DNA of 64,000 nt, from NCBI GenBank assembly GCA_039587475.1, contig JBDHIK010000300.1, positions 39,450-103,449 of the forward strand, given 5' to 3'. This DNA comes from Gemmatimonadota bacterium (GTDB taxonomy: Bacteria; Gemmatimonadota; Gemmatimonadetes; Gemmatimonadales; GWC2-71-9). Numbering within the stretch: the first letter of the stretch is position 1; each line of letters opens with the position of its first letter. Under the pieces are notes generated by a model. That model worked only from the letters and a program-made list of their open reading frames with translations, was not told the DNA's origin and searched no databases. Shown in pieces: positions 26,622 to 57,963 of this stretch. Position numbers and translations under genes: made by a program.

Positions 26622-28148
26622 GTGACGGAGTCCACTGCCTCTACCGTCGCCCAATGGGCCAAGGCCATCGACCACACGCGGTGTATCGGGTGTCACGCAT
26701 GCAGCACCGCCTGCAAGTCCGAGAACGACGTCCCGCTCTCCGTGAACCGTACCTATGTGAAGTACGTCGATGTCGGCGCCTTTCCCCAGGCGCGGCGGGC
26801 CTTCCAGGTCACTCGCTGCAATCAATGCGCCGACCCTCCCTGTGTGGCGGCCTGTCCCACCGCGGCGATGTATCAGCGGGACGACGGGATCGTCGATTTT
26901 GACAAGGCGGCCTGTATTGGATGCAAGGCCTGCATCGCCGCGTGCCCCTACGACGCCATCTTCATCAATCCGGACGACCATTCCGCCGAGAAGTGCAACT
27001 TCTGCGCTCATCGCATCGACATGGGATTGGAACCGGCTTGTGTCGTGGTGTGCCCGACCCAGGCCATCGTGGTCGGCGATCTCCAGGATCCCACGGCACG
27101 GGTTACCCAGTTGGCCCAACGTGAAGCCGTCGCCGTCCGCAGGCCTGAAAAGGAGACCCGGCCCAAGCTGTTCTACCTCGGCGCCCATCACGCCACGCTC
27201 GACCCCATCGCGGCCACCCGTCCGGACGGCGGTCTCTTCATGTGGAGTGAGCAGGCCACCGGACCGCATTCGGTCGTGTCCGGCCACCCGGGGGCGACGA
27301 CCAGTTCCGCTGCTGCGATCTTGTCTTACGACGTGCCGCACAAGGCGCCGTGGGACTGGCGTGTCAGTCTGTACACCTGGACCAAGGGCATCGCCGCGGG
27401 AGCCTACCTGGTCCCACTGCTGCTCGTGGTGCTCGGCGTGCTGGATCCTGCCAGTGCCTTGTGGCACTATGGCGCGCCGGTCATGGGCGGCGCCTTCCTG
27501 GGGTTGACCGGCCTGCTCCTCATCTGGGATCTGGAACACCCCGGCCGCTTCTGGTACATCTTCGCCCGCCCCCAGCTACGGAGTTGGCTCGTTCGTGGCG
27601 GATTCATCATCGGGGGCTACTCGGTTGTGCTTGCCGGGCACTTTGCCGCGGTCCTGGCAGGTGTCGATGGTGCGCTCATGTGGCTGGCCTTCGCAGGCGT
27701 GCCACTGGCAGCTCTCACCGCGATCTATACGGCCTACCTGTTTGCCCAGGCCAAGGGACGGGACTTGTGGCAGAACCCGCTCCTGCCCCCTCAGTTGCTG
27801 GTGCAGACCATCCTGGTCGGGGCCGCGGCGTTCTTGCCCCTGGCGGCTGTATGGGAACCATCCGTCGCGCCGGTGTTGCTCCGTCTCGTGGCCGGTGGCG
27901 CCAGTCTGTATCTCCTGCTGGTCCTGGGCGAGATGACGTTGGCTCACCCGACCGCGCATGCCAAGCTGGCCGCCTGGGAGATGACCTCCGGGCGTTACCG
28001 TCACTATTTCTGGGCCGGGATGGTGCTGCTTGCGGCGGCCGTCACCGCCCCCTGGCTCGGGATCACCGCCGCGCCACTGGCTCTGGCCGGGGTCCTGGCG
28101 CACGAGCACGCCTACGTGCAGGCGGGGCAAGCCGTCCCGCTGGCATGA
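26622..28148 (+). CDS. fusion protein: 4x[4Fe-4S] ferredoxin subunit (PsrB/TtrB/SoeB-like) fused to NrfD/PsrC-type 8-TM quinone-interacting membrane anchor
   Basis: Four Cys clusters (CIGCHACSTAC, CNQCADPPCVAACP, CIGCKACIAACP, CNFC...CVVVCP); C-terminal ~265 aa with ~8 TM helices; SD GAGGAGGG at 26603-26610 then GTG 26622 (ORF-track start is 26601); no Tat/Sec signal. Confidence 0.85.
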   Translation: MTESTASTVAQWAKAIDHTRCIGCHACSTACKSENDVPLSVNRTYVKYVDVGAFPQARRAFQVTRCNQCADPPCVAACPTAAMYQRDDGIVDFDKAACIGCKACIAACPYDAIFINPDDHSAEKCNFCAHRIDMGLEPACVVVCPTQAIVVGDLQDPTARVTQLAQREAVAVRRPEKETRPKLFYLGAHHATLDPIAATRPDGGLFMWSEQATGPHSVVSGHPGATTSSAAAILSYDVPHKAPWDWRVSLYTWTKGIAAGAYLVPLLLVVLGVLDPASALWHYGAPVMGGAFLGLTGLLLIWDLEHPGRFWYIFARPQLRSWLVRGGFIIGGYSVVLAGHFAAVLAGVDGALMWLAFAGVPLAALTAIYTAYLFAQAKGRDLWQNPLLPPQLLVQTILVGAAAFLPLAAVWEPSVAPVLLRLVAGGASLYLLLVLGEMTLAHPTAHAKLAAWEMTSGRYRHYFWAGMVLLAAAVTAPWLGITAAPLALAGVLAHEHAYVQAGQAVPLA

Positions 28149-28158
28149 GGAAACGACC

Positions 28159-31080
28159 ATGACGTCGAACGAACTGAACGAGCGGGTCACCGCTGCCCGG
28201 GACCAGGTAGAACGACGAGGGGAGACGTTCTACCCGGGTCCCAGCCGGATCCACCTCGCCGCGTTCCCGCCAAAGGAGCGCTGGGATGATTGGGTCGAGC
28301 TGGACTCGAAGGCATGGCCCGAGGCCAGCGAGCGGCGTTATACCCTGATCCCCACGACCTGCTTCAACTGCGAGTCCGCGTGCGGCCTGCTGGCGTACGT
28401 AGACCGCGACACGCTCGGGGTTCGGAAGTTCGAGGGGAATCCGGAGCATCCCGGGTCCCGGGGGCGCAATTGTGCCAAGGGACCGGCGACCCTGAACCAG
28501 ATTACCGATCCCGACCGTATCCTGGCGCCGCTCAAGCGCGCCGGGGCTCGCGGGGAAGGCCGGTGGGTCGAAGTGGGATGGGATGAAGCCCTGGACGACA
28601 TCGCGGGCCGCATCCGGAAGGCCATCCAGGAGAAGCGTCACAACGAGATCATGTATCACGTGGGGCGCCCTGGCGAGGACGGCTACACCGAACGCATCAT
28701 GGCGGCCTGGGGTGTGGACGGGCACAACTCGCACACCAACGTGTGTTCCTCCAACGCAAGAGCCGGCTACCAGTACTGGAGTGGTATCGACCGTCCCAGT
28801 CCGGATTTCGCCAACGCCCGGGTGATCCTGTTGGTGTCGGCGCACCTCGAGACCGGCCACTACTTCAACCCCCATGCCCAGCGCATCATGGAGGGGAAAC
28901 AGGACGGCGCCAAACTGGTGGTGTTCGATACCCGGCTGTCCAACACCGCCACCCACGCCGACCACTGGGTATCGCCCCATCCCGGGTCGGAGGCCGCGGT
29001 CTTTCTTGCCATCGCCAACGACCTGATTCAGCACGACCGCTACGACCGGGATTTCGTCCGTCGCTGGTGGAACTGGTCCGAGTACCTCGAGGCGGAATAC
29101 CCGGACCGGGCGGCGACGTTCGAGACGTTCGAGGAGGTTCTCAAGGAACTCTACGCCGATTACACCTTCGCGTTCGCGGCGCAGGAGTCCGGCGTGGACG
29201 AAGAGACGCTGAGAGACATCTCCCGACTGGTCGCGTCCGCGGGGACCCGGCTGGCCACGCATAACTGGCGCAGTGCCGCGGCCGGCAACGAAGGTGGATG
29301 GCAGGTCAGCCGCACGCTCTTTCTGCTGAATGCGTTGCTGGGAGCCATCGCCACCGAGGGCGGCACCACTCCCAACGCCTGGAACAAGTTCGTTCCCAAG
29401 CCCATTCACCTGCCGCCACACCCCAATGTCTGGAATCCGTTGACTTGGCCGGGAGAGTATCCACTGGCCATGAACGAGTTGTCCTTCCTGCTGCCGCATT
29501 TTCTGAAGGAGGGTCGCGGCCGACTGGATGTCTATTTCACACGCGTCTACAACCCGGTCTGGACCAATCCGGATGGGTTTTCGTGGATCGAGGTTCTGTC
29601 GGACGAGTCCCTCATCGGGATGCACGTCGCACTGACGCCCACCTGGAACGAGTCGGCCTACTTCGCCGACTACGTCCTTCCCATGGGGCACAGTTCCGAG
29701 CGGCACGACCTGACCTCCTACGAGACGGCCAACGGCCAGTGGATCGGCTTTCGCCAGCCGGTCCTGCGTGCCATGCGTGAGCGGCTCGGACAGCCCGTGT
29801 CGGATACCCGCGAAACCAACCCGGGCCAGGTCTGGGAGGAAAACGAGTTCTGGATCGACCTCACCTGGCGCATCGACCCCGACGGGTCATTGGGAATCCG
29901 CCAGTATGTGGAATCGAGATCCGCACCCGGAACGAAACTCGGCGTCGACGAATACTATGGCTATGCCTTCGAGCACTCGGTCCCGGGGCTGCCGGAGCGA
30001 GCCCAGGCCGAAGGCCTGACACCCCTCGAGTACATGCGGCGCTACGGTGCGTTCAGTGTCACGGCCAACGTGGATCCACCATACGAACGCGCGGTCCCCA
30101 CCGAGGAACTGGAGGACCCCGCAGAGTCAGCCCATGGGAGGGTCTTCACCCGGGCTCACAAGCCGCCCAATCCCAACATTGCCCCGCAGGCCGCGCCAGA
30201 GGGAGATGCCGAGGGCCGGCGCCCGGTCGGCGTCAATGTGGACGGGACGGTCCTGCGCGGCTTCCCCACTCCCAGCGGACGGCTGGAGTTCTACTCTACC
30301 ACGCTCGCCCAATGGGGCTGGCCCGAGTTTGCGCTTCCGACGTACATCAAGAGCCATGTCCACCCCGACCGGTTGGCCGACGACCAGGTCGTCCTGATTT
30401 CGACGTTCCGCCTGCCGGTGCACATCCACACCCGGAGTGCCAACGCCAAGTGGCTCACGGAAATCGCCCACACCAATCCCCTGTGGCTGCACCCGGACGA
30501 CGCGGGACCGCTCGGTGTCGGGACGGGCGATCTGATGCGTGTCGAGACGGAGATCGGCCATTTCGTCGTCAAGGCCTGGGTGACGGACGGCATCCGCCCC
30601 GGGGTGGTGGCCTGCAGCCATCACATGGGCCGCTGGAAACTCTCGGCGGAAGCCCATGGGACCATCACCGCCACGGCCGACCTGAATCATCAGGGGCACG
30701 ATTGGCGCCTGCGCCGCTCCAGCGGATCCACCAGGCCCGGCGCCGGAAGCGCAGAGGCCGCCCGGATCTGGTGGACCGACGTCGGTGTCCATCAAAACCT
30801 GACGTTCCCCGTGCATCCCGACCCGGTGACCGGACAACACTGTTGGCACCAGGCGGTGCGTGTTCGCAGGGCCCTTCCCAGCGATTGCCACGGCGACGTC
30901 TCGGTCGATAGCGCCAAGGCCGGGGCCGTTTACCGTGCCTGGCTGCAGAGGACCCGGTCGGCGCAAGAGCACTCTCCGGACGGGACCCGGAGACCGTTCT
31001 GGCTCATCCGCCCGCTCAAGCCTCCCAAGGAGGTGTTCCGGCTACCGGGGACCCCGGCTACCCGGGCAGGCTCGGAATAG
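28159..31080 (+). CDS. molybdopterin (bis-MGD) oxidoreductase catalytic subunit, DMSO-reductase superfamily (Psr/Ttr/Soe-like), no Tat signal
   Basis: ATG 28159 after GAGGAA; N-terminal FeS motif CFNCESACGLLAYVD...x26...CAKG; MopB core; C-terminal molybdopterin-dinucleotide-binding domain (...GDLMRVETEIGHFVVKAWVTDGIRPGVVACSHHMG); N-terminus MTSNELNERVTAARDQVERRGETFYPG lacks an RRxFLK Tat motif; extra ~150 aa C-terminal tail. Confidence 0.9.
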   Translation: MTSNELNERVTAARDQVERRGETFYPGPSRIHLAAFPPKERWDDWVELDSKAWPEASERRYTLIPTTCFNCESACGLLAYVDRDTLGVRKFEGNPEHPGSRGRNCAKGPATLNQITDPDRILAPLKRAGARGEGRWVEVGWDEALDDIAGRIRKAIQEKRHNEIMYHVGRPGEDGYTERIMAAWGVDGHNSHTNVCSSNARAGYQYWSGIDRPSPDFANARVILLVSAHLETGHYFNPHAQRIMEGKQDGAKLVVFDTRLSNTATHADHWVSPHPGSEAAVFLAIANDLIQHDRYDRDFVRRWWNWSEYLEAEYPDRAATFETFEEVLKELYADYTFAFAAQESGVDEETLRDISRLVASAGTRLATHNWRSAAAGNEGGWQVSRTLFLLNALLGAIATEGGTTPNAWNKFVPKPIHLPPHPNVWNPLTWPGEYPLAMNELSFLLPHFLKEGRGRLDVYFTRVYNPVWTNPDGFSWIEVLSDESLIGMHVALTPTWNESAYFADYVLPMGHSSERHDLTSYETANGQWIGFRQPVLRAMRERLGQPVSDTRETNPGQVWEENEFWIDLTWRIDPDGSLGIRQYVESRSAPGTKLGVDEYYGYAFEHSVPGLPERAQAEGLTPLEYMRRYGAFSVTANVDPPYERAVPTEELEDPAESAHGRVFTRAHKPPNPNIAPQAAPEGDAEGRRPVGVNVDGTVLRGFPTPSGRLEFYSTTLAQWGWPEFALPTYIKSHVHPDRLADDQVVLISTFRLPVHIHTRSANAKWLTEIAHTNPLWLHPDDAGPLGVGTGDLMRVETEIGHFVVKAWVTDGIRPGVVACSHHMGRWKLSAEAHGTITATADLNHQGHDWRLRRSSGSTRPGAGSAEAARIWWTDVGVHQNLTFPVHPDPVTGQHCWHQAVRVRRALPSDCHGDVSVDSAKAGAVYRAWLQRTRSAQEHSPDGTRRPFWLIRPLKPPKEVFRLPGTPATRAGSE

Positions 31081-31083
31081 TCG

Positions 31084-31941
31084 ATGGAGTTGTTCAGGGC
31101 CCTGGGCGCCCTGGCCGAGCGGCCTGATGCCGCGACGACCAGGCTGGCGGAAATCCTCGGCCTCGATCGGGCGCCGACGGCGGAGGAACACACGGCCCTG
31201 TTCCACCTGGAACTGTCCCCGTATGCCTCGGTCTATCTCAATCCCGAAGGCATGCTTGGTGGGGAAGCGCGCGACCGCGTGGCCGGCTTCTGGCGCGCGG
31301 TGGGCCAGGATCCGCCGGGGGAGACGGATCATGTCGCGGTCCTCATGGCCACCTATGCCAGCCTGGCGGACCTGGAGCAGGCAGAGCAGCAGGAGCGCCA
31401 ACAGGCCGCCTTCAGCCGCATGCGATCCGCGTTTCTGTGGGAACACCTCCTCAGTTGGCTTCCGCCGTTTCTCGATGCCGTTCAGGCCGTCGGCCCCGCA
31501 CCGTACCGCCAATGGGGCCGGCTGGTGGATGAGGCCCTCGAGACCGAGGCCCGTCGCACCACGCCTCCGGATAGTCTCTCCATGCACCTGAAACAGCACC
31601 TGCCTCTCGCCTCGTCTGATGAGGATACCGACGCGTTGCTGGCCGGTCTTCTGGCTCCGGTTCGGAGCGGTCTCGTGCTGACGGGCTCGGATCTGGTTCG
31701 GGCCGCGCGGGACACCGGGCTGGCTCGCCGGGCCGGCGAGCGCCGGTTCGTCCTGCGAGCCTTCCTGGAGCAGGATCCGTCGCGTGTCTGGCCCTGGTTG
31801 GCGGAGGAGGCGAACCGGTGGGCCATCCGGCACGAGGCTCGGCGGCCCTGGTTGGCCTCGATCGCAGCGGAGTGGGCCGCCCGCGCCCGCGCCACCGCCC
31901 GGTTGTTGAGCAGCCTCAGCCCATCTGGCGCCGGCCGCTGA
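31084..31941 (+). CDS. TorD/DmsD/NarJ-family molybdoenzyme maturation chaperone
   Basis: ...HLELSPYASVYLNPEGMLGGEA... and GETDHVAVLMATYASLADLE resemble the TorD-family E(P)xDH region; directly follows the catalytic subunit gene (3-nt gap). Confidence 0.65.
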   Translation: MELFRALGALAERPDAATTRLAEILGLDRAPTAEEHTALFHLELSPYASVYLNPEGMLGGEARDRVAGFWRAVGQDPPGETDHVAVLMATYASLADLEQAEQQERQQAAFSRMRSAFLWEHLLSWLPPFLDAVQAVGPAPYRQWGRLVDEALETEARRTTPPDSLSMHLKQHLPLASSDEDTDALLAGLLAPVRSGLVLTGSDLVRAARDTGLARRAGERRFVLRAFLEQDPSRVWPWLAEEANRWAIRHEARRPWLASIAAEWAARARATARLLSSLSPSGAGR

Positions 31942-33778: not shown

Positions 33779-35358
33779 GCGTCGACGCCCTGTCGTTCAG
33801 GTCCTTCCGCCGGCAGCAGGAACCAGAAGCAACTGCCCGATCCGAAAATGGACTCGGCGCCAATGGTCCCTCCGTGCATTTCCACGAACTTCTTGGACAG
33901 GGCCAGGCCCAAGCCGGTCCCGCGCTGGCGGCGACTGGCGGAGCTGTCCACCTGGGTGAACTCCGTGAAGAGCCGGGACAGATCGTCATCCTTGATGCCG
34001 ATGCCATCGTCGGCGACCGAGACCCAGATCGCCTCCCGATTGACGAGACGAGGGGAGCTGGTGCCCTGATCGTCGGACTGGCGGGTCGCCGGCACCGGAA
34101 GGGGCACCAGGGTCCGAACCACGGAGAGAGTGATGTGGCCCTCTTCCTGGGTGAACTTGGACGCATTCGACAGGAGATTGAACAGGATCTGGCGCACCCG
34201 GTGGCCATCCGCCACGGCCATGAACGGCTCGTCGTTCATCTGAATCTGGCACTCCTGGGCCTTGCCGGCACGAAGGCTGGCGGTGTCCGCCACCGCCCCC
34301 GTCACGGCCTGGCGCAGGTCGGTCGGCGCCAGGTCCAGCTGGGCGTGCCCTGCTTCGATCTTCGACAGGTCCAGGACGCTGTTGATGAGGGAGAGCAAGT
34401 GCCGTCCATTGCGCAGCACCGACTCGAGGAAGTCGCGCTGCTGATCGTTGAGCGGGCCGGGGTGATCCGTCAGGAGCAAGTCGGAGAACCCGATGATGGC
34501 ATTGAGCGGCGTGCGTAGCTCGTGGGACATGTTGGCCAGGAACTCGCTCTTGAGGCGCGTGGCTCGTTGCAGTTCCACGTTCTTGGCGGTGAGCGCCGCT
34601 TCATTCTGCTTGAGCTCCTGCAGGACGCTGGCGCGGTCGAGTCCCAGGGCGACCAGGTCTCCAAGAGCGTCCAGCAGATTGACGTCCGCCTGCGAGAATG
34701 GTCGGCCATCGATGCGGTTGTAGGCACTGACCGTCCCGATGTTGATCCCGCCGGACCGTAGGGGGACGATGGCGCAGGATTTCAGGCGGATGGGAGAATG
34801 GGCCAGCTGATAGTCACGCAGGTCCGACTCCATGTCGGCCGACAGGACCGGCTCGTCCTCCGTGACCGACCAGCCAACCAGAGAATGGTCGGCCGGGACC
34901 AGCGAGCCGACCACGGAGGCCATCGGGCCGGAGGCGGCCACGACTTTCACGAAGCGCCCTTCCTCGACCACCATCGTGACGACCCCGGTCTCGGCCTGGA
35001 GGAGGTCCATCGCGGCATCGGCCACCTGGCCACACAACTCCAGGAACTCTCGGCCCGAAAGGAGTGAGCCGGCCAGCGAGCGCAGTGTCTCCAGTTCCTG
35101 ATTGCGCAGGTCCGCACTGAACAGGGCCGCCCGCAGACCCTCGCTGCGGGCCCGAGCCAGGGTGCGGCCGCGATGCGTTGCCAGGACGGCCATGGCCGTC
35201 GTGACCACCACCAGGAACCATCCGAGCCAATGCTGACGGGCCAGCAACACGACACCGGACCAGCCGGTGATGAGCGCGAGAATGACGATGGGGACGGGAC
35301 GGTACAACCGGCGCTCGACAAAGCGCTGCCATCGGGTGGACGGCCCTGGCGGGCTCAC
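33775..35358 (-). CDS. GAF-domain sensor histidine kinase (2 N-terminal TM helices, GAF, HisKA, HATPase_c)
   Basis: H-box ANMSHELRTPLNAI, N/G1/G2 boxes (LLSNASKF..., VADDGIGI..., GTGLGLALS); GAF segment between TM region and HisKA; no adjacent response regulator. Confidence 0.9.
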   Translation of the reverse strand: MSPPGPSTRWQRFVERRLYRPVPIVILALITGWSGVVLLARQHWLGWFLVVVTTAMAVLATHRGRTLARARSEGLRAALFSADLRNQELETLRSLAGSLLSGREFLELCGQVADAAMDLLQAETGVVTMVVEEGRFVKVVAASGPMASVVGSLVPADHSLVGWSVTEDEPVLSADMESDLRDYQLAHSPIRLKSCAIVPLRSGGINIGTVSAYNRIDGRPFSQADVNLLDALGDLVALGLDRASVLQELKQNEAALTAKNVELQRATRLKSEFLANMSHELRTPLNAIIGFSDLLLTDHPGPLNDQQRDFLESVLRNGRHLLSLINSVLDLSKIEAGHAQLDLAPTDLRQAVTGAVADTASLRAGKAQECQIQMNDEPFMAVADGHRVRQILFNLLSNASKFTQEEGHITLSVVRTLVPLPVPATRQSDDQGTSSPRLVNREAIWVSVADDGIGIKDDDLSRLFTEFTQVDSSASRRQRGTGLGLALSKKFVEMHGGTIGAESIFGSGSCFWFLLPAEGPERQGVDA

Positions 35359-35588
35359 GATCCGGGAGACTCCAGGGACGTCGGCTCAGGCGGAAGCAAT
35401 TCGTGGAACTCCGTCGTCCCGTCGGCCAGCATGACGCGAAGATAGGGCCGGCACAGTCCGCATTGGTCGCCACATCCCGTCTGAGCCATTACATCCTCCA
35501 GGGTCCAGGCCTGGTGACGTGCCAGGTCGCGCAGGTGCGCGAACGGCATCCCTTGACATACGCAATGGGTGATGTGGACGCCGGCCAC
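35355..35588 (-). CDS. BFD-like [2Fe-2S]-binding domain protein
   Basis: 77 aa with CxC...CGDQCGLC pattern of bacterioferritin-associated-ferredoxin-like domains; 4-nt overlap with the start of the histidine kinase gene. Confidence 0.7.
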   Translation of the reverse strand: MAGVHITHCVCQGMPFAHLRDLARHQAWTLEDVMAQTGCGDQCGLCRPYLRVMLADGTTEFHELLPPEPTSLESPGS

Positions 35589-35591
35589 GCG

Positions 35592-36302
35592 TCAGGGGTT
35601 GGTGGGGCGAATATCCAGCTCGCTCACCGTCGCCCGGGACGGCATGGACAAGAGATCCAACACGACGCGCGCCACGTCGTCCGGTTGGAGGATGCGCTCG
35701 AGATCCGGTTGCATCACGTCCTGATTCCTGATCAACGGGGTATCGACCGACCCCGGGCACACCGCCACGACCCGAATGCCGTCCCCGCGAGCCTCCAGCA
35801 TCAGCGCCCTGCTGAACCCGAGGACGCCGTGCTTTGACGCGCAATAGGCCGTTCCGCCCACGAAACCATTGCGGCCGGCGAGGCTGGCGATATTGATGAT
35901 CGTGCCGTGACTACGCCGCCGCATGCCAGGGAGGACCGCTCTGGTGACGAGGAACGTGCCTCTGAGATTGGTGGACATGGTGGCATCCCAATCGTCGACC
36001 GACAGGTCTTCGAGTGGGCCCATGCGCGCGATACCGGCATTGTTGACGAGGACTTCGATTGGCCCCAGGGTGCTTTGGACGGTATCCACGACAGCGGCCA
36101 CGTCCGCTTCCTGCCCAACGTCGGCTGCGCCTCCGGCCGCATCGATCCCTTGCGCCTCGAGCTCCGTCAACAACAACTCGACCGTGGCCTCATGACGGGC
36201 GCACACCCCTATCCGGTAGCCTTTGCGTCCCAGGAGGAACGCCACGGCCCGGCCGATTCCTTCCGTGGCCCCAGTGACGAATGCAGTGGATGGTCCAGAC
36301 AT
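35592..36302 (-). CDS. SDR family short-chain dehydrogenase/reductase
   Basis: TGATEGIGRA Rossmann motif, NNAG, catalytic S...YCASK triad. Confidence 0.9.
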   Translation of the reverse strand: MSGPSTAFVTGATEGIGRAVAFLLGRKGYRIGVCARHEATVELLLTELEAQGIDAAGGAADVGQEADVAAVVDTVQSTLGPIEVLVNNAGIARMGPLEDLSVDDWDATMSTNLRGTFLVTRAVLPGMRRRSHGTIINIASLAGRNGFVGGTAYCASKHGVLGFSRALMLEARGDGIRVVAVCPGSVDTPLIRNQDVMQPDLERILQPDDVARVVLDLLSMPSRATVSELDIRPTNP

Positions 36303-36746: not shown

Positions 36747-36775
36747 TTGACATCTTCCGCGTCTGCCTCCAAGAT
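36747..36775 (+). promoter_or_regulatory. candidate sigma70-type promoter of the EF-G paralog (TTGACA -35, 17-nt spacer, weak CAAGAT -10)
   Basis: Perfect TTGACA at 36747-36752, 35 nt upstream region to ATG 36810; -10 element poor, so low confidence. Confidence 0.25.
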
Positions 36776-36809
36776 CCAGATCTCAACATCTGAAGGAGGT
36801 GGGACCGCG

Positions 36810-38861
36810 ATGAAGGTCTACGATACCACACATATCCGGAACGTTGCCTTCGTCGGACACGGTGGCAGCGGCAAGACGACTCTGGTCGATGCCCTTGCCT
36901 TCGTGTCCGGCTCCAGCCGCAGGCACGGCACAATCACTGACGGCACGACCCTGACGGACTACTCCCAGGATGAAATCGAACGGCAACACTCCATCGGATT
37001 GGGGATGGGGTTCGCCGAGTGGATGGACACCAAGATCAACATGATCGACACGCCCGGTTACCTCGACTTCTTTGGCGAGGCGGTTACCGGATTGCATGCG
37101 GCCGACGCCGCCGTCGTGGTGCTCAGTGGCACCGGCGGTGTGGAAGTCGGCACGGAGAAGGTGTGGGAGATGTGTGACCGGCTGCATCTTCCGCGGATGC
37201 TGTTCGTGTCGCTGATGGACAAGGAGCATGCGGACTTCGAGCGAGTCTTCGCCGACGTGAAGGAGCATCTCTCGCCCAAGGTGTTGCCGGTCGAGATTCC
37301 CGTCGGAGACGGCCATGACTTCCATGGCATCATCAATCTGTTTTCGGGCAAAGCGCACATGTACAAGGCCGGCACACCGACCGGCGAGTACGACGAGGTG
37401 GATGTCCCCGACGAATATGCCGAACGATTTCGTGCCTACAGCGAACAGCTGACCGAGACCGTGGCTTCGACGGATGACACGCTCATCGAACGGTATCTCG
37501 AAGGGGAATCGATTTCCCGGGCCGAAGTGATCACGACCATGAAGCGGGCTATGCTCGCCGGCGAGATCGTGCCACTCTTCGTTGGCAGCGGGGAACTCAC
37601 CTTCGGCATGCGGGCGCTGTTGGCCAAGATGGTGGAACTGTTGCCTTCTCCCGACGAGGTGGAGACCCCCTCGGACGCCCCGCTTGTCGGACGTGTCTTC
37701 AAGACGGTGTCCGAGCCGCATGTCGGCGACGTGAGCCTGTTCCGGGTCTATCAGGGCACGATCAAGAACGGCGATGCGGTGTTTAACGCCGAACACGAGG
37801 TGGTGGAAAAGCTGAACCATCTGTCGGTGCAGCAGGGTCGTGACCGGCACGAGGTGGCCGAATTGGCGCGCGGAGACATCGGGTCCGTCGCCAAGCTGAA
37901 GGACACCCATACCAACGACACCTTCTGTAGCCAGGCGACACCGGTGCATCTCGACCCGATCCCGTTTCCCGAACCCGTCGCAACCTCAGCTGTCCGGGTC
38001 AAGGCCCGGGGCGAGGAGGACAAGCTGGCGGCAGGGCTCCACAAGTTGCACGAGGAGGATCCCACGTTCCACTTCGAGTACAACTCGGAATTGGGGCAGA
38101 CCTTGATCCACGGAATGGGGGAGCGGCACTTCGAGATCCTGCTGAAACGCCTCGAAGGGAAATTCGGGGTCGCGGCCGAACTCCTGCGCCCCAAGATCGC
38201 CTATCGGGAGACCTTGCGAGGACGGGCCGAGGGGCAGGGCAAGCACAAGAAACAGTCGGGAGGGCGGGGCCAGTTCGGTGACTGCTGGATTCGCCTGGCG
38301 CCGCGATCGCGAGGAGAGGGCTACGAGTTCCAGAACAAGATCGTCGGCGGCGTCATCCCCAGTAAGTATGTCCCCGCGGTCGACAAGGGCGTCCGGGAAG
38401 CCGCGGCGCGCGGTGTCGTCGCCGGATATCCGATGGTCGATTTCGCCGCCGAATGTTTCGACGGGTCCCACCATTCCGTCGACTCGAACGAGATGTCGTT
38501 CAAGATGGCGGGCATTCTGGCGTTTCGTAACGTCGCGCCTCAGGCCAGGCCCGCCCTTCTCGAGCCCCTCGACGATGTCGAAGTCTGGACACCGGAAGAC
38601 ACCCTCGGCGACGTGATGGGGGACCTGAGCGGGCGCCGGGGCCAGATCCTCGGCACGGAGCAGGACGGACGGCTGACCAAGATCACCGCCATCGTGCCGC
38701 AATCCGAACTCTATAAGTACTCCACCACGTTGCACTCCATGACCCACGGACGCGGGACGTTCCACCGCAAGTTCCACGGGTACGTGGAAGCGCCACCCGA
38801 GGTCGCCGCCAAGGTGGCCGAGGACACCAAAGCGGAGCGGACTCCCGCCGGCGCCACCTAG
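36810..38861 (+). CDS. elongation factor G paralog (EF-G-like GTPase) with degenerate G3/G4 motifs
   Basis: ATG 36810 preceded by AGGAGG; five-domain EF-G architecture; P-loop GHGGSGKTT; switch II DTPGYLDF (canonical DTPGHVDF); G4 SLMD (canonical NKMD); the 301 upstream codons of ORF 35907..38861 overlap SDR gene antisense and are not coding. Confidence 0.9.
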   Translation: MKVYDTTHIRNVAFVGHGGSGKTTLVDALAFVSGSSRRHGTITDGTTLTDYSQDEIERQHSIGLGMGFAEWMDTKINMIDTPGYLDFFGEAVTGLHAADAAVVVLSGTGGVEVGTEKVWEMCDRLHLPRMLFVSLMDKEHADFERVFADVKEHLSPKVLPVEIPVGDGHDFHGIINLFSGKAHMYKAGTPTGEYDEVDVPDEYAERFRAYSEQLTETVASTDDTLIERYLEGESISRAEVITTMKRAMLAGEIVPLFVGSGELTFGMRALLAKMVELLPSPDEVETPSDAPLVGRVFKTVSEPHVGDVSLFRVYQGTIKNGDAVFNAEHEVVEKLNHLSVQQGRDRHEVAELARGDIGSVAKLKDTHTNDTFCSQATPVHLDPIPFPEPVATSAVRVKARGEEDKLAAGLHKLHEEDPTFHFEYNSELGQTLIHGMGERHFEILLKRLEGKFGVAAELLRPKIAYRETLRGRAEGQGKHKKQSGGRGQFGDCWIRLAPRSRGEGYEFQNKIVGGVIPSKYVPAVDKGVREAAARGVVAGYPMVDFAAECFDGSHHSVDSNEMSFKMAGILAFRNVAPQARPALLEPLDDVEVWTPEDTLGDVMGDLSGRRGQILGTEQDGRLTKITAIVPQSELYKYSTTLHSMTHGRGTFHRKFHGYVEAPPEVAAKVAEDTKAERTPAGAT

Positions 38862-39025: not shown

Positions 39026-40489
39026 ATGCCTGGTGCAGTTCTGAGCCTCATCGGGACCCCCCCGCTCTTGGGTGTCCGCAGTCGCCCACGACGGATAGGA
39101 CGCCGCACCCTGCCGGCCCTGGCGATAGCGCTCGCCGCTCTGGCCGGCCTCGGTGTGCCACGAGCCGCCGCACAGGAATCCGACAGCATCAGGATCGAGA
39201 CCCTGGAACGTCAGGTGGCGGGCCTCCAGGCCCAGCTGGACTCGCTGCGCGGGGCAGCGCCCGACGCCGAGCGGCTGGACGAGCTGAGGCGTCAGATCGA
39301 CGCCATCAGCCGGCAGATCGAATCACTACAACTGGGACAGGACGTCGTGGAGGCGCGCGATGGCCGGTTCGGGCTCGGGCCTGCCGCCTCGAAGGTGTAT
39401 CAGGTGGAGCGTGGAGTCTCGATCGGTGGATATGGCGAGATGCTGTATCGCAACTACTCGAAGACACGACAGGACGGCAGCGCGTCCGGGGAGAAAGACC
39501 AACTCGACTTCCTGCGCGGCGTGTTCTACGTCGGCTACAAGTTCAACGACAGGATCCTCTTCAATTCGGAGATCGAACTGGAGCACGCCGCCACTAGCAA
39601 CAGCGGCTCGGTATCCCTGGAGTTCGCCTATCTGGACTTCTTCTTCACGTCGTGGCTGGGGGCCCGGGGCGGCTTGGTACTGATTCCCATGGGTTTTCTC
39701 AACGAACTTCACGAGCCTCCCATCTACCTTGGCACCGAGCGTCCAGAAACCGAGCGCCTCATCATTCCGACGACATGGCGAGAGAATGGGGTCGGGGTGT
39801 TCGGAGAAACCGGAGGCTTCGCCTTCCGGGGGTTTGTCGTCAATTCGTTCGATGCCGTGGGAGGCGGCACGTCCAACGCCAAGGGCTTCAATGCCGAGGG
39901 CCTGCGCGACGGTCGCCAGAAAGGCTCCAAGGCGGTCATCGAGAACGTGGCCGGGGTGGCTCGGCTGGACTACGTGGGGCAGCGTGGTGCGACGATCGGG
40001 CTGTCGGCATTCTACGGGAATACCGGACAGGGGAATACCGATCCGGCCGGTCAGGTCATCGCCGCACCGACCTTCATCGGCGAAGTACACGCGGAGTACC
40101 GCTCACGGGGGTGGTGGCTTCGCGGCCTGTACACCTTGTCCACCGTTGGAGACGTCCCCCAGCTCAACGCGGCCCGGAACCTCACCGGTGCGGAGTCCAT
40201 CGGTGAGCGTCTCACCGGGTGGTATCTCGAGGCCGGTTACGATGTGTTGCGATCCGTGGCGACGACTCACCAGCTGATTCCCTACCTGCGCTACGAACAG
40301 CTCAATACGCAGGACCAGGTGCCGGCAGGGTTCAGCGCCAATCCCGCGAACGACCAGACCATCACGACGGTGGGCGCCATGTGGAAGCCCATCGCCAACA
40401 TTTCCGTCAAGGCGGACTACCAGATCCGGACCAACGGCGCTCGGACCGGTGTCGATCGGCTCAACCTCAACCTCGGGTACCTGTTTTGA
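39026..40489 (+). CDS. outer-membrane porin with N-terminal coiled coil (phosphate-selective-porin O/P-like)
   Basis: Signal peptide (RRIGRRTLPALAIALAALAGLGVPRAAAQ); coiled coil IETLERQVAGLQAQLDSLRG...; beta-barrel pattern ending ...LNLNLGYLF; start may instead be TTG ~39068. Confidence 0.7.
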   Translation: MPGAVLSLIGTPPLLGVRSRPRRIGRRTLPALAIALAALAGLGVPRAAAQESDSIRIETLERQVAGLQAQLDSLRGAAPDAERLDELRRQIDAISRQIESLQLGQDVVEARDGRFGLGPAASKVYQVERGVSIGGYGEMLYRNYSKTRQDGSASGEKDQLDFLRGVFYVGYKFNDRILFNSEIELEHAATSNSGSVSLEFAYLDFFFTSWLGARGGLVLIPMGFLNELHEPPIYLGTERPETERLIIPTTWRENGVGVFGETGGFAFRGFVVNSFDAVGGGTSNAKGFNAEGLRDGRQKGSKAVIENVAGVARLDYVGQRGATIGLSAFYGNTGQGNTDPAGQVIAAPTFIGEVHAEYRSRGWWLRGLYTLSTVGDVPQLNAARNLTGAESIGERLTGWYLEAGYDVLRSVATTHQLIPYLRYEQLNTQDQVPAGFSANPANDQTITTVGAMWKPIANISVKADYQIRTNGARTGVDRLNLNLGYLF

Positions 40490-57041: not shown

Positions 57042-57540
57042 CTACTTCTTACGTGTCGGCCGTTTGGCCTTCTTGGTGGTCCGCTTGCTGGCCTTCTTGA
57101 CCTTCCGGGCCGTCGTCCTGGCCGTCTTCTTGGCCTTCCGGGCCGTTGTCCTGGCCGATTTCTTGGCCGTTCTGGCCGTCGACCGTGCTTTCTTCTTCAC
57201 CTTCCGCGCGGTTGATCGGGCAGCCTTCTTGGCCTTCCGGACGGTCTTCCTGGCTTTGGCCCGGGTCTTCTTCACCGCCCGCTTGGCAACCTTCTTCGCG
57301 GCCTTCTTACCCTTGGTAGCCTGGCGCTTCGCCTTCTTCGCTACCTTCTTGACCGCCTTCTTGACCTTCTTCTTCGTCTTCTTCACAGCCTTCTTGGTGG
57401 CCCGCTTGGCCCGGGAGACCCGCTTGGCGGCGGTCGGTTTCGGAGCGGCCTTCTTCGGCGTGGCCTTTCGCGCCGTCGCCTTGGCCGGCGCGGGGGCAGG
57501 CTCAGGTTTGGGAGCCTGGGCCGGTTCCGGCTCTGTCCCG
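57042..57540. repeat. in-frame imperfect tandem nucleotide repeats (GGCCTTCTTGGCC/GTCCTGGCC-type) encoding the Lys/Ala repeats of the histone-like gene
   Basis: Visible periodic CTTCTTGGCC / CCTTCCGGGCCGT units on the + strand; coding low-complexity, not a CRISPR (no spacers, no cas). Confidence 0.6.
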
Positions 57541-57644
57541 CTGTCCTGAGGCATCTGTTCCGGTGTCGGCTCGCTTGCCAAGGGCATGGGATCCATCCAC
57601 CCAGAGCCCGACCACCCCAACTCAGTATCGTTCTGTTCTGCCAT
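57042..57644 (-). CDS. histone H1-like / AlgP-like Lys/Ala-rich nucleoid-associated protein
   Basis: ATG 57644 preceded by GGAGGAGG; acidic N-terminal ~70 aa followed by ~130 aa of KKAxKKxAR-type repeats; extra 23 codons of ORF 57042..57713 rejected. Confidence 0.75.
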   Translation of the reverse strand: MAEQNDTELGWSGSGWMDPMPLASEPTPEQMPQDSGTEPEPAQAPKPEPAPAPAKATARKATPKKAAPKPTAAKRVSRAKRATKKAVKKTKKKVKKAVKKVAKKAKRQATKGKKAAKKVAKRAVKKTRAKARKTVRKAKKAARSTARKVKKKARSTARTAKKSARTTARKAKKTARTTARKVKKASKRTTKKAKRPTRKK

Positions 57645-57963
57645 GTCTACCTCCTCCACCACGGTGTACGGCTCCTCCCAGTGGCTGGGCCGTTGGGTTG
57701 CCGGTCCTGGCACCCGAAACAGTGTGCAGCAAATCGCCTATAACATGCCAACAAATGAAGCGCGTGCAAGTAGTTAGACCACGCGGCGGGTGCCAATTCA
57801 GGCCTGCAATGAATTGCACTACGCCAAGTCACATACCCGCTTGAACTTAACCAGGTCGACCCCGACACGCGAAGTCGGTGACCCAGCGGTGATTTGCGGC
57901 ACCTCGAAGCAGGAGCCGATTAGGTAACACCTTGTATGTCAAAGGCTTAACGCAATTTGTGAT
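57645..57963. promoter_or_regulatory. ~320-nt relatively AT-rich divergent intergenic region between histone-like gene (-) and Big_2/TolB gene (+)
   Basis: No convincing ORF; lower GC than surroundings (…cctataacatgccaacaaatgaag…gcaatttgtgatgtgg…); expected to carry two divergent promoters. Confidence 0.4.

Follow-up and report, generated by a model that had tools for sequence, protein, structure and literature searches.

Domain organization and GTPase motifs of the encoded protein

A gene at positions 36810 to 38861 on the forward strand of a 64,000-nucleotide (nt) stretch of Gemmatimonadota DNA (contig JBDHIK010000300.1; the whole stretch is termed the window, and all positions below are window coordinates) encodes a protein of 683 amino acids (aa) that was assigned, from its domains, NCBIfam matches, and alignments, to the EFG II (EF-G2) type of elongation factor G (EF-G) paralogs. 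The gene stands alone and is probably transcribed singly. Its open reading frame (ORF) starts with ATG at 36810 and closes with a TAG stop codon at 38859 to 38861. A strong Shine-Dalgarno (SD) sequence, AAGGAGGTG, was read directly at 36793 to 36801 on the same strand, 8 nt 5′ of the ATG. A longer reading of 984 aa from a GTG at 35907 was rejected, as homologs begin with MKVY and the SD and ATG are kept in orthologous loci.

Five EF-G domains were recovered in order by Pfam, all on the forward strand: the G domain with its G′ insertion (GTP_EFTU; residues 8 to 280, 36831 to 37649; E = 8.7e-36), domain II (EF-G_D2; residues 292 to 374, 37683 to 37931), domain III (EFG_III; residues 386 to 458, 37965 to 38183), domain IV (EFG_IV; residues 461 to 579, 38190 to 38546), and domain V (EFG_C; residues 583 to 667, 38556 to 38810), which is followed by a variable C-terminal tail. 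Two loops of domain IV were located within this arrangement. Loop I, GKHKKQSGGRGQFG, is encoded at 38238 to 38279 (forward strand) and carries the Lys-Lys pair of EFG II, and loop II, DGSHHSVDSN, is encoded at 38460 to 38489 (forward strand) and contains a His aligned to the loop II His of Thermus thermophilus EF-G.

Residues 4 to 669 were aligned to T. thermophilus EF-G using HMMER (E = 2.4e-154) with high posterior probability at the motifs, and full-length alignments to EF-G structures gave E values from 1e-151 to 1e-154. The fold is settled because of this sequence homology to solved EF-G structures. An AlphaFold2 model built from 50 aligned close homologs was poor, with a pLDDT of 69.9, a pTM of 0.45, and residues 1 to 89 below 50, and was not used for a fold search.

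The nucleotide-binding motifs, all on the forward strand, depart from those of canonical EF-G at several positions. The G1 motif, or P-loop, reads GHGGSGKTTL (36855 to 36884; alignment and codons), is paired by HMMER as GHGGSGKTT with AHIDAGKTT of T. thermophilus EF-G, includes the EFG II markers Gly16 and Leu25, and has Gly in place of both the Ile and the Asp of the canonical AHID. G2, in switch I, reads RQHSIG opposite RGITIT (36981 to 36998), with Thr replaced by Ser as in EFG II. In switch II, the G3 sequence DTPGYLDF (37047 to 37070; alignment and codons) is paired with DTPGHVDF, so that Tyr84, encoded by a TAC codon at 37059 to 37061 on direct reading, occupies the position of the canonical catalytic His. 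G4 is SLMD rather than NKMD, with the Asp kept (37209 to 37220; codons TCGCTGATGGAC), within the aligned pair FVSLMDK/FANKMDK. The G5 region is GSGEL in place of GSALK (37584 to 37598; alignment).

An initial annotation of this DNA had described an EF-G paralog of full five-domain length with a strong SD, a GHGGSGKTT P-loop, DTPGYLDF in switch II, and SLMD at G4, and all of these features were confirmed by Pfam, HMMER, and codon reading. It had also allowed that the change from His to Tyr could be a misalignment; this is not the case, as the HMMER alignment to T. thermophilus EF-G shows no alternative His in the vicinity of the catalytic position.

Assignment to EFG II and conservation across Gemmatimonadota

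The best NCBIfam match of the protein was NF009381 (PRK12740.1-5, an "elongation factor G" subfamily), for which it passed the cutoff of 583 with 835.8 bits over profile positions 1 to 688 of 692. It failed the cutoffs of the TIGR00484 equivalog for canonical EF-G, known as EFG I (623.1 bits; cutoff, 659.4), of the actinobacterial-type EF-G2 profile NF009377 (619.4 bits; cutoff, 890), and of the Bacteroidetes EF-G2 profile NF058620 (560.3 bits in two stretches, broken at query residue 502 and profile position 511; cutoff, 1000). Scores fell far under the cutoffs for Tet protection proteins (NF012153, tet_protect; 291.9 bits; cutoff, 775), RF3 (157 bits; cutoff, 473), and BipA (TypA; 134.6 bits; cutoff, 757), and identities as a Tet(M)/Tet(O)-like protein, RF3, or BipA were rejected on these scores.

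When the G domain alone was used as a query against solved structures, 1WDT, 7UVP, and 9K0Z outranked every canonical EF-G. The corresponding proteins are T. thermophilus EF-G-2 (1WDT/2DY1), with GHAGSGKTTL at G1, DAPGYGDF at G3, and TKLD at G4; Bacteroides thetaiotaomicron EF-G2 (7UVP/8DMF), with GSSGSGKTTL, DCPGSDDF, and NQLD; and Mycobacterium smegmatis EF-G2 (9K0Z/9K10), with GPSGGGKTTL, DTPGYADF, and TKLD. Two of these three EF-G2 structures share Tyr at the His position, and the third is also without His.

EFG II was defined by a relaxed G2 motif (xxxSx) together with a set of marker positions (Margus 2011; Margus, Remm & Tenson). Ten of these positions were mapped by way of a Thermus representative sharing 94% identity with 1WDT, and nine of the ten carry the EFG II residue in the 683-aa protein. 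Besides Gly16 and Leu25, which are Ala and Thr in EFG I, they comprise Asp222, Leu270, Thr299, Gly343, Lys362, and Lys480-Lys481 (positions 216, 264, 291, 333, 352, and 471-472 in 1WDT numbering), of which Thr299, Gly343, and Lys362 lie in domain II. The sole mismatch, at 1WDT position 250, is a conservative Leu where EFG II usually has Val. The G2 sequence is RQHSI here and R[KQ]HSI in clade orthologs, in agreement with xxxSx. A Gly in EFGII at the place where other translational GTPases (trGTPases) carry the monovalent-cation-binding P-loop Asp has likewise been described (Atkinson 2015), and the protein has GHGG opposite the AHID of canonical EF-G.

When 1.84 billion representatives of 50%-identity clusters were searched in full with HMMER, 4,560 proteins were retrieved at E ≤ 1e-30, and residues were tallied over the best 150. 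At the catalytic position, Tyr was found in 72, Phe in 29, Asp in 12, and His in 9, the remainder being mixed. Five of the nine His-bearing representatives are canonical EF-Gs with AHIDAGKTT, RGITI, and NKMD, Dictyoglomus among the canonical types recovered; the canonical representatives have Ala at position 16, L/T/C/V/T at position 25, and V/I, A, and G at the domain II columns where the 683-aa protein has T299, G343, and K362. His is thus kept in 4 of about 145 EFG II-like representatives and absent in about 97%. Within the EFG II-like group, Gly occupies position 16 in 114 of 145 and Leu position 25 in 116 of 145, and the Leu found here at 1WDT position 250 is common to 25 of the 145. The second position of G4 is Lys or Arg in 111 of the 150 and another residue in 38 (about 25%), while the G4 Asp is kept in 132, GK[TS] in 148, and DxPG in 147. 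By these counts, loss of the His is the rule in EFG II/EF-G2, and the Tyr marks a known family rather than a new oddity. The distribution of the His-to-Tyr variant had been put forward as a matter to check: the variant is real, but it is not peculiar to this protein, being characteristic of a described subfamily with solved structures.

The protein resembles the EFG II subfamily in its five domains, in a G1 that begins with Gly and ends with Leu, in the xxxSx form of G2, in the domain II Gly and Lys, in the loop I Lys-Lys, in the location of the gene outside the str operon, and in forming a phylum-specific subgroup. Apart from the Leu at 1WDT position 250, it differs at G4: Margus 2011 states that NKxD is conserved, whereas SLMD occurs here and the Gemmatimonadota subgroup always replaces both N and K. 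Since 38 of the 150 nearest representatives have neither Lys nor Arg at the second position, NKxD is, on sequence counts, a loose trait of EFG II and not a defining one. Compared with canonical EF-G (EFG I, fusA; T. thermophilus 1DAR/2BM1), the protein aligns over its full length and shares the GGRGQ and DGSxH loops and domain V, but AHIDAGKTT, RGITI, DTPGH, and NKMD are all altered and the gene lies outside the str operon.

Several observations bear on whether this is the housekeeping copy. No rpsL, rpsG, or tuf gene is found nearby, whereas EFG I normally resides within the str operon; genomes with a single EFG always carry EFG I; and a published table lists Gemmatimonas aurantiaca T-27 with both EFG and EFGII. 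For these reasons the gene is not considered the housekeeping copy, and published data support the presence of a canonical fusA elsewhere in the genome. No second trGTPase was found within the 64-kb window or in 82 related loci. Taken with the profile and marker results, the gene is almost certainly a Gemmatimonadota member of EFG II (EF-G2), that is, a second, non-housekeeping EF-G copy. The earlier proposal of a divergent EF-G paralog distinct from the housekeeping translocase agrees with both the failed TIGR00484 score and the lack of str-operon neighbors.

An identical protein is encoded on the 103-kb JGI metagenome contig Ga0451564_000619 (3300041024), whose final 64 kb make up the window. 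Identities of 74 to 100% were found for the 120 nearest database proteins, with the named ones labeled Gemmatimonadales, and a scan of GTDB species genomes returned 118 relatives, the best 80 of which are 66 to 86% identical and come from Gemmatimonadota metagenome-assembled genomes (MAGs) in every case except one contig labeled Acidimicrobiia. Orthologs from uncultured Gemmatimonas genomes are 70 to 72% identical, that of a cultured Gemmatimonas is about 70% identical, and a 77%-identical ortholog (P0029) is encoded on a 3.73-Mb contig (ERZ25039533 contig_25021). The exceptional contig (CAXMUQ010000072.1; locus L005), from a MAG named "uncultured Acidimicrobiia bacterium," holds an 86%-identical copy with the same SDR gene and 112-aa hypothetical gene upstream and a porin-like gene downstream. 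Because these neighbors match the Gemmatimonadota locus, it is probably a mis-binned Gemmatimonadota contig.

Motifs were counted in 76 full-length Gemmatimonadota orthologs, and invariant residues were determined from 50 close homologs. The catalytic position is occupied by Tyr in 61 orthologs, Phe in 12, and Leu in 3, and by His in none. G4 follows [STGA]xMD in all 76 (SLMD, SGMD, SQMD, GQMD, TAMD, AAMD, and others): N never occurs at the first position and K or R never at the second, which varies freely (L, G, Q, A, E, M, or S), while MD is invariant. The initial annotation had read SLMD as loss of the NKxD motif; N and K are indeed replaced, but the Asp is kept in every ortholog. G1 has the clade pattern GH-G-x-x-GKT-x-L, with Gly, Ala, or Ser at the position of the canonical P-loop Asp, and SGE replaces SAx at G5 in about half of the clade members. 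Loop I of domain IV reads GKHKKQ[ST]GG in 75 of 76 orthologs. Invariant residues include G16, H17, G18, G21, K22, D80, P82, G83, M136, D137, K138, G259, and S260, as well as loop I residues 474 to 493 and H555, which aligns with the canonical loop II His.

Pairwise ratios of nonsynonymous to synonymous substitution (dN/dS; Nei-Gojobori) were 0.04 to 0.2 for the whole gene. Over the G-domain core (residues 1 to 155), they were 0.04 to 0.08 against six orthologs of 78 to 86% identity, and the three most divergent ones gave 0.13 to 0.18; with dS saturated, all of these ratios are upper-bound-like. The intact frame, purifying selection, and wide conservation indicate that the gene is functional and not decaying, with a constrained G domain, and a pseudogene reading was rejected on the same three grounds.

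The value of these results as a discovery is small, as replacement of the His by Tyr is the norm in a widespread, published family and databases already name the protein "elongation factor G." Such annotations conflate the housekeeping translocase with factors of the EF-G2 type. The sole lineage-specific point is that G4 has completely lost N and K throughout Gemmatimonadota, which departs from the 2011 description of EFG II, although about a quarter of EFG II-like representatives are also without K or R. An EFG II copy under strong purifying selection is a uniform feature of Gemmatimonadota, bacteria that abound in soil, and the lineage dismantles G4 further than most; it therefore offers a natural variant for asking how much of the GTPase center an EF-G-type factor needs.

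Mode of action and competing explanations

The protein retains the residues that bind phosphate and Mg2+ and recognize guanine, namely, Lys and Thr of the P-loop, Ser of switch I, DxPG, Asp of G4, and Ser of G5. It also retains the domain IV loops that face the decoding center. Across the clade, the elements on which canonical EF-G relies for ribosome-triggered hydrolysis have been replaced: the His of switch II, the Ile that belongs to the hydrophobic gate and the Asp, both in the P-loop, and most of RGITI. The G4 Asp is the residue that specifies guanine. The earlier suggestion that guanine specificity had been lost is thus unsupported, since GK[TS] in the P-loop, DxPG, and the Asp and Ser of G4 and G5, respectively, are conserved. 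Its companion suggestion of an impaired GTPase is borne out insofar as the changes hit the GTPase center; the His-to-Tyr change by itself does not foretell a dead GTPase in this family, as T. thermophilus EF-G-2 is reported to be active.

The three EF-G2 proteins of known structure differ in reported activity. M. smegmatis EF-G2, in which His88 is replaced by Tyr98, has no ribosome-dependent GTPase activity and no part in ribosome recycling, and under stress it reportedly traps ribosomes in the post-translocation state; an H88Y substitution nearly abolishes the GTPase of MsmEF-G1. B. thetaiotaomicron EF-G2 is cited as translocating without GTP hydrolysis and as being induced by carbon starvation. 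T. thermophilus EF-G-2, with Tyr, is reported to have ribosome-dependent as well as intrinsic GTPase, translocation, and poly(Phe) activities.

Each of the three resembles the 683-aa protein in part. T. thermophilus EF-G-2 is the best structure match to the G domain and has the same type of G1 and the same Tyr, but it keeps the G4 Lys (TKLD), is 665 aa long, is reported to be GTPase active, and is about 41% identical (measured with the Thermus representative). M. smegmatis EF-G2 likewise has Tyr for the catalytic His, its P-loop and switch I have diverged, and its genome also has a canonical EF-G1; it differs in its GPSGGGKTT and TKLD motifs, its displaced domain IV loops, and a shorter C terminus of domain V. 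B. thetaiotaomicron EF-G2 is an EF-G paralog that has lost both the catalytic His and the G4 Lys (NQLD) and has a similar N terminus (MKVY), whereas it has Ser at the His position, a length of 718 aa, and an extra segment after about residue 511. B. thetaiotaomicron belongs to the FCB superphylum, as does Gemmatimonadota. The HMMER alignment to its EF-G2 splits at query residue 502 and chain residue 511, and the remaining lengths differ by 26. From this alignment break and length arithmetic only, the 683-aa protein appears to be without the B. thetaiotaomicron segment of about 26 residues.

The best overall explanation, which we hold at about even chances, is that the gene encodes an auxiliary EFG II factor with a dismantled ribosome-activated GTPase center. 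Such a protein would still bind GTP and, on the ribosome, would dock at the factor site so that domain IV occupies the A site, but would hydrolyze GTP poorly or not at all, acting as an auxiliary factor beside a canonical EF-G encoded elsewhere. As to its specific mode of action, we tentatively favor, at somewhat under an even chance, a slow, energy-sparing translocase of the B. thetaiotaomicron EF-G2 kind, which would be used when energy is limiting. A slow, hydrolysis-poor translocase is preferred because the tip of domain IV is invariant and canonical, and because the G4 Lys is lost as in B. thetaiotaomicron EF-G2.

Four points weigh against this explanation. T. thermophilus EF-G-2 has Tyr and is nevertheless reported to be GTPase active, so that sequence by itself does not reveal a deficiency in hydrolysis. 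For a canonical fusA in this organism, the support is indirect and comes from published tables. Among the neighborhoods of 81 related loci, no conserved neighbor ties the gene to starvation. Finally, transfer of the B. thetaiotaomicron mechanism may be uncertain because the segment of about 26 residues seems to be lacking here; this segment is said, in 2023 work of Han and colleagues, to be responsible for the lack of GTPase activity and for the release of B. thetaiotaomicron EF-G2.

The protein could instead act in the manner of M. smegmatis EF-G2, binding GTP without hydrolysis, translocation, or recycling, and holding post-translocation ribosomes so as to slow translation in stress. The shared His-to-Tyr change, the diverged P-loop and switch I, and a G-domain similarity to 9K0Z near that to 1WDT and 7UVP would fit such a role. 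We consider it unlikely, as identity to actinobacterial-type representatives is only about 40% and the NF009377 score is 619 against a cutoff of 890; moreover, an active role at the decoding center is in keeping with the domain IV loops of the clade, which are invariant and canonical (GGRGQ and the loop II His), whereas those of MsmEF-G2 are described as displaced from tRNA. The proposal in the initial annotation of a ribosome-binding factor for protection, hibernation, or rescue is supported in part: M. smegmatis EF-G2 provides a hydrolysis-deficient precedent for a ribosome factor among characterized relatives, but Tet-like protection and RF3 or BipA functions are unsupported by the scores. 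Doubtful as well is a condition-specific isoform of the T. thermophilus EF-G-2 type, which, despite the Tyr, would show active, ribosome-dependent GTP hydrolysis and would translocate functionally, if somewhat more slowly. With its GHAGSGKTTL and DAPGYGDF motifs, 1WDT is the best PDB match of the G domain, the protein itself is reported to be active in GTP hydrolysis and translocation, and Gly16 has been linked to higher intrinsic GTPase activity (Margus et al.). Set against these are the G4 Lys, which T. thermophilus EF-G-2 keeps and the Gemmatimonadota clade has lost together with the N; the near abolition of GTPase activity by H88Y in a canonical EF-G background; and the fact that two of the three characterized EFG II proteins are without GTPase activity.

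Changes at G4 and G5 raise the question of the nucleotide itself. Binding of a nucleotide other than GTP, or action in a nucleotide-free state, might be proposed from the [STGA]xMD pattern of all 76 orthologs, with its unconstrained second position, and from GSGEL in place of GSAxK. This reading is very improbable, since invariance extends to DxPG, to the Lys of the P-loop, and to the Asp and Ser of G4 and G5, respectively; B. thetaiotaomicron EF-G2 (NQLD) is also without the G4 Lys and is described as using GTP without hydrolyzing it; and about 25% of EFG II-like representatives have neither K nor R at the second G4 position. A milder proposal, which we regard as speculative and rather improbable, is that loss of N and K, with SGE at G5 in about half of the clade, might reflect weakened or altered nucleotide binding, such that the factor would cycle by fast exchange or by binding energy, with no hydrolysis. 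If true, a hydrolysis-free cycle driven by binding energy would be a step beyond B. thetaiotaomicron EF-G2. Hardly credible is the last set of readings, a Tet(M)/Tet(O)-like protection protein, an RF3- or BipA-like factor, or a decaying pseudogene. Homology to those trGTPases exists but is distant, with scores of 291.9 against 775, 157 against 473, and 134.6 against 757, and the intact frame, strong purifying selection, and wide conservation speak against decay.

Upstream signals and genomic neighborhood

Upstream of the SD, a promoter-like element was read directly at 36747 to 36775 on the forward strand. It consists of TTGACA (36747 to 36752), a 17-nt spacer, and CAAGAT (36770 to 36775). In an alignment of seven orthologous upstream regions, ATTTGACA was unchanged in all seven, and the TTGACA hexamer, resembling a -35 element, was likewise invariant. 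The GGAGG core was present at the SD position in six of the seven; the remaining locus (L007) has AAGGAGGG, with GGAGG shifted. The -10-like CAAGAT is weak, matching the consensus at only three of six positions, and for this reason the consensus promoter scan was silent on the element. From its conservation, the TTGACA/CAAGAT pair probably serves as the gene's own promoter. Consensus scans for terminators and promoters yielded nothing useful, an Rfam scan of the window gave no element, and tRNAs were looked for with none found.

The upstream neighbors are a divergent gene for a 112-aa hypothetical protein, an SDR gene, a small BFD-like ORF, a gene for a GAF-histidine kinase, and a uridine kinase gene; downstream are genes for a porin-like protein and an FMN-binding protein, followed by others. 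This upstream block is retained in 26 to 28 of 81 related loci, and the downstream side is not conserved. A functional partner was sought in the neighborhoods of the 81 loci, and no operon partner was found, the upstream genes being divergent or separate.

Directly downstream, a 473-aa protein encoded at 39068 to 40489 (forward strand) has a signal-like N terminus, contains a coiled-coil segment, and is beta-rich and porin-like in its C-terminal part. It matches no significant Pfam family and adjoins the EF-G2 gene only in the three closest relatives. The BFD-like ORF (77 aa; 35355 to 35588, reverse strand) lies between the GAF-histidine kinase and SDR genes, and its product has a [2Fe-2S] binding domain of the BFD-like type (PF04324; 32 bits). 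The JGI gene calls omit this ORF, but in a related 3.7-Mb genome the equivalent position is taken by a 70-aa gene (L002, 2358 to 2570). Farther upstream, at about 26810 to 31941 (L001, 1 to 5132), genes for a Fer4/NrfD-type protein, a 973-aa molybdopterin oxidoreductase, and a Nitrate_red_del-type chaperone make up a locus for a respiratory molybdoenzyme that lies upstream of the EF-G2 gene by about 5 kb. Elsewhere in the window, a 223-aa protein (57042 to 57713, reverse strand) has a C-terminal half of Lys/Ala/Arg/Thr-rich repeats (AKKAxKK/ARKxKK) encoded by 33- and 66-nt tandem repeats at 57091 to 57396; no Pfam family matches it, and in character it is close to basic repeat proteins of the histone-H1-like kind.

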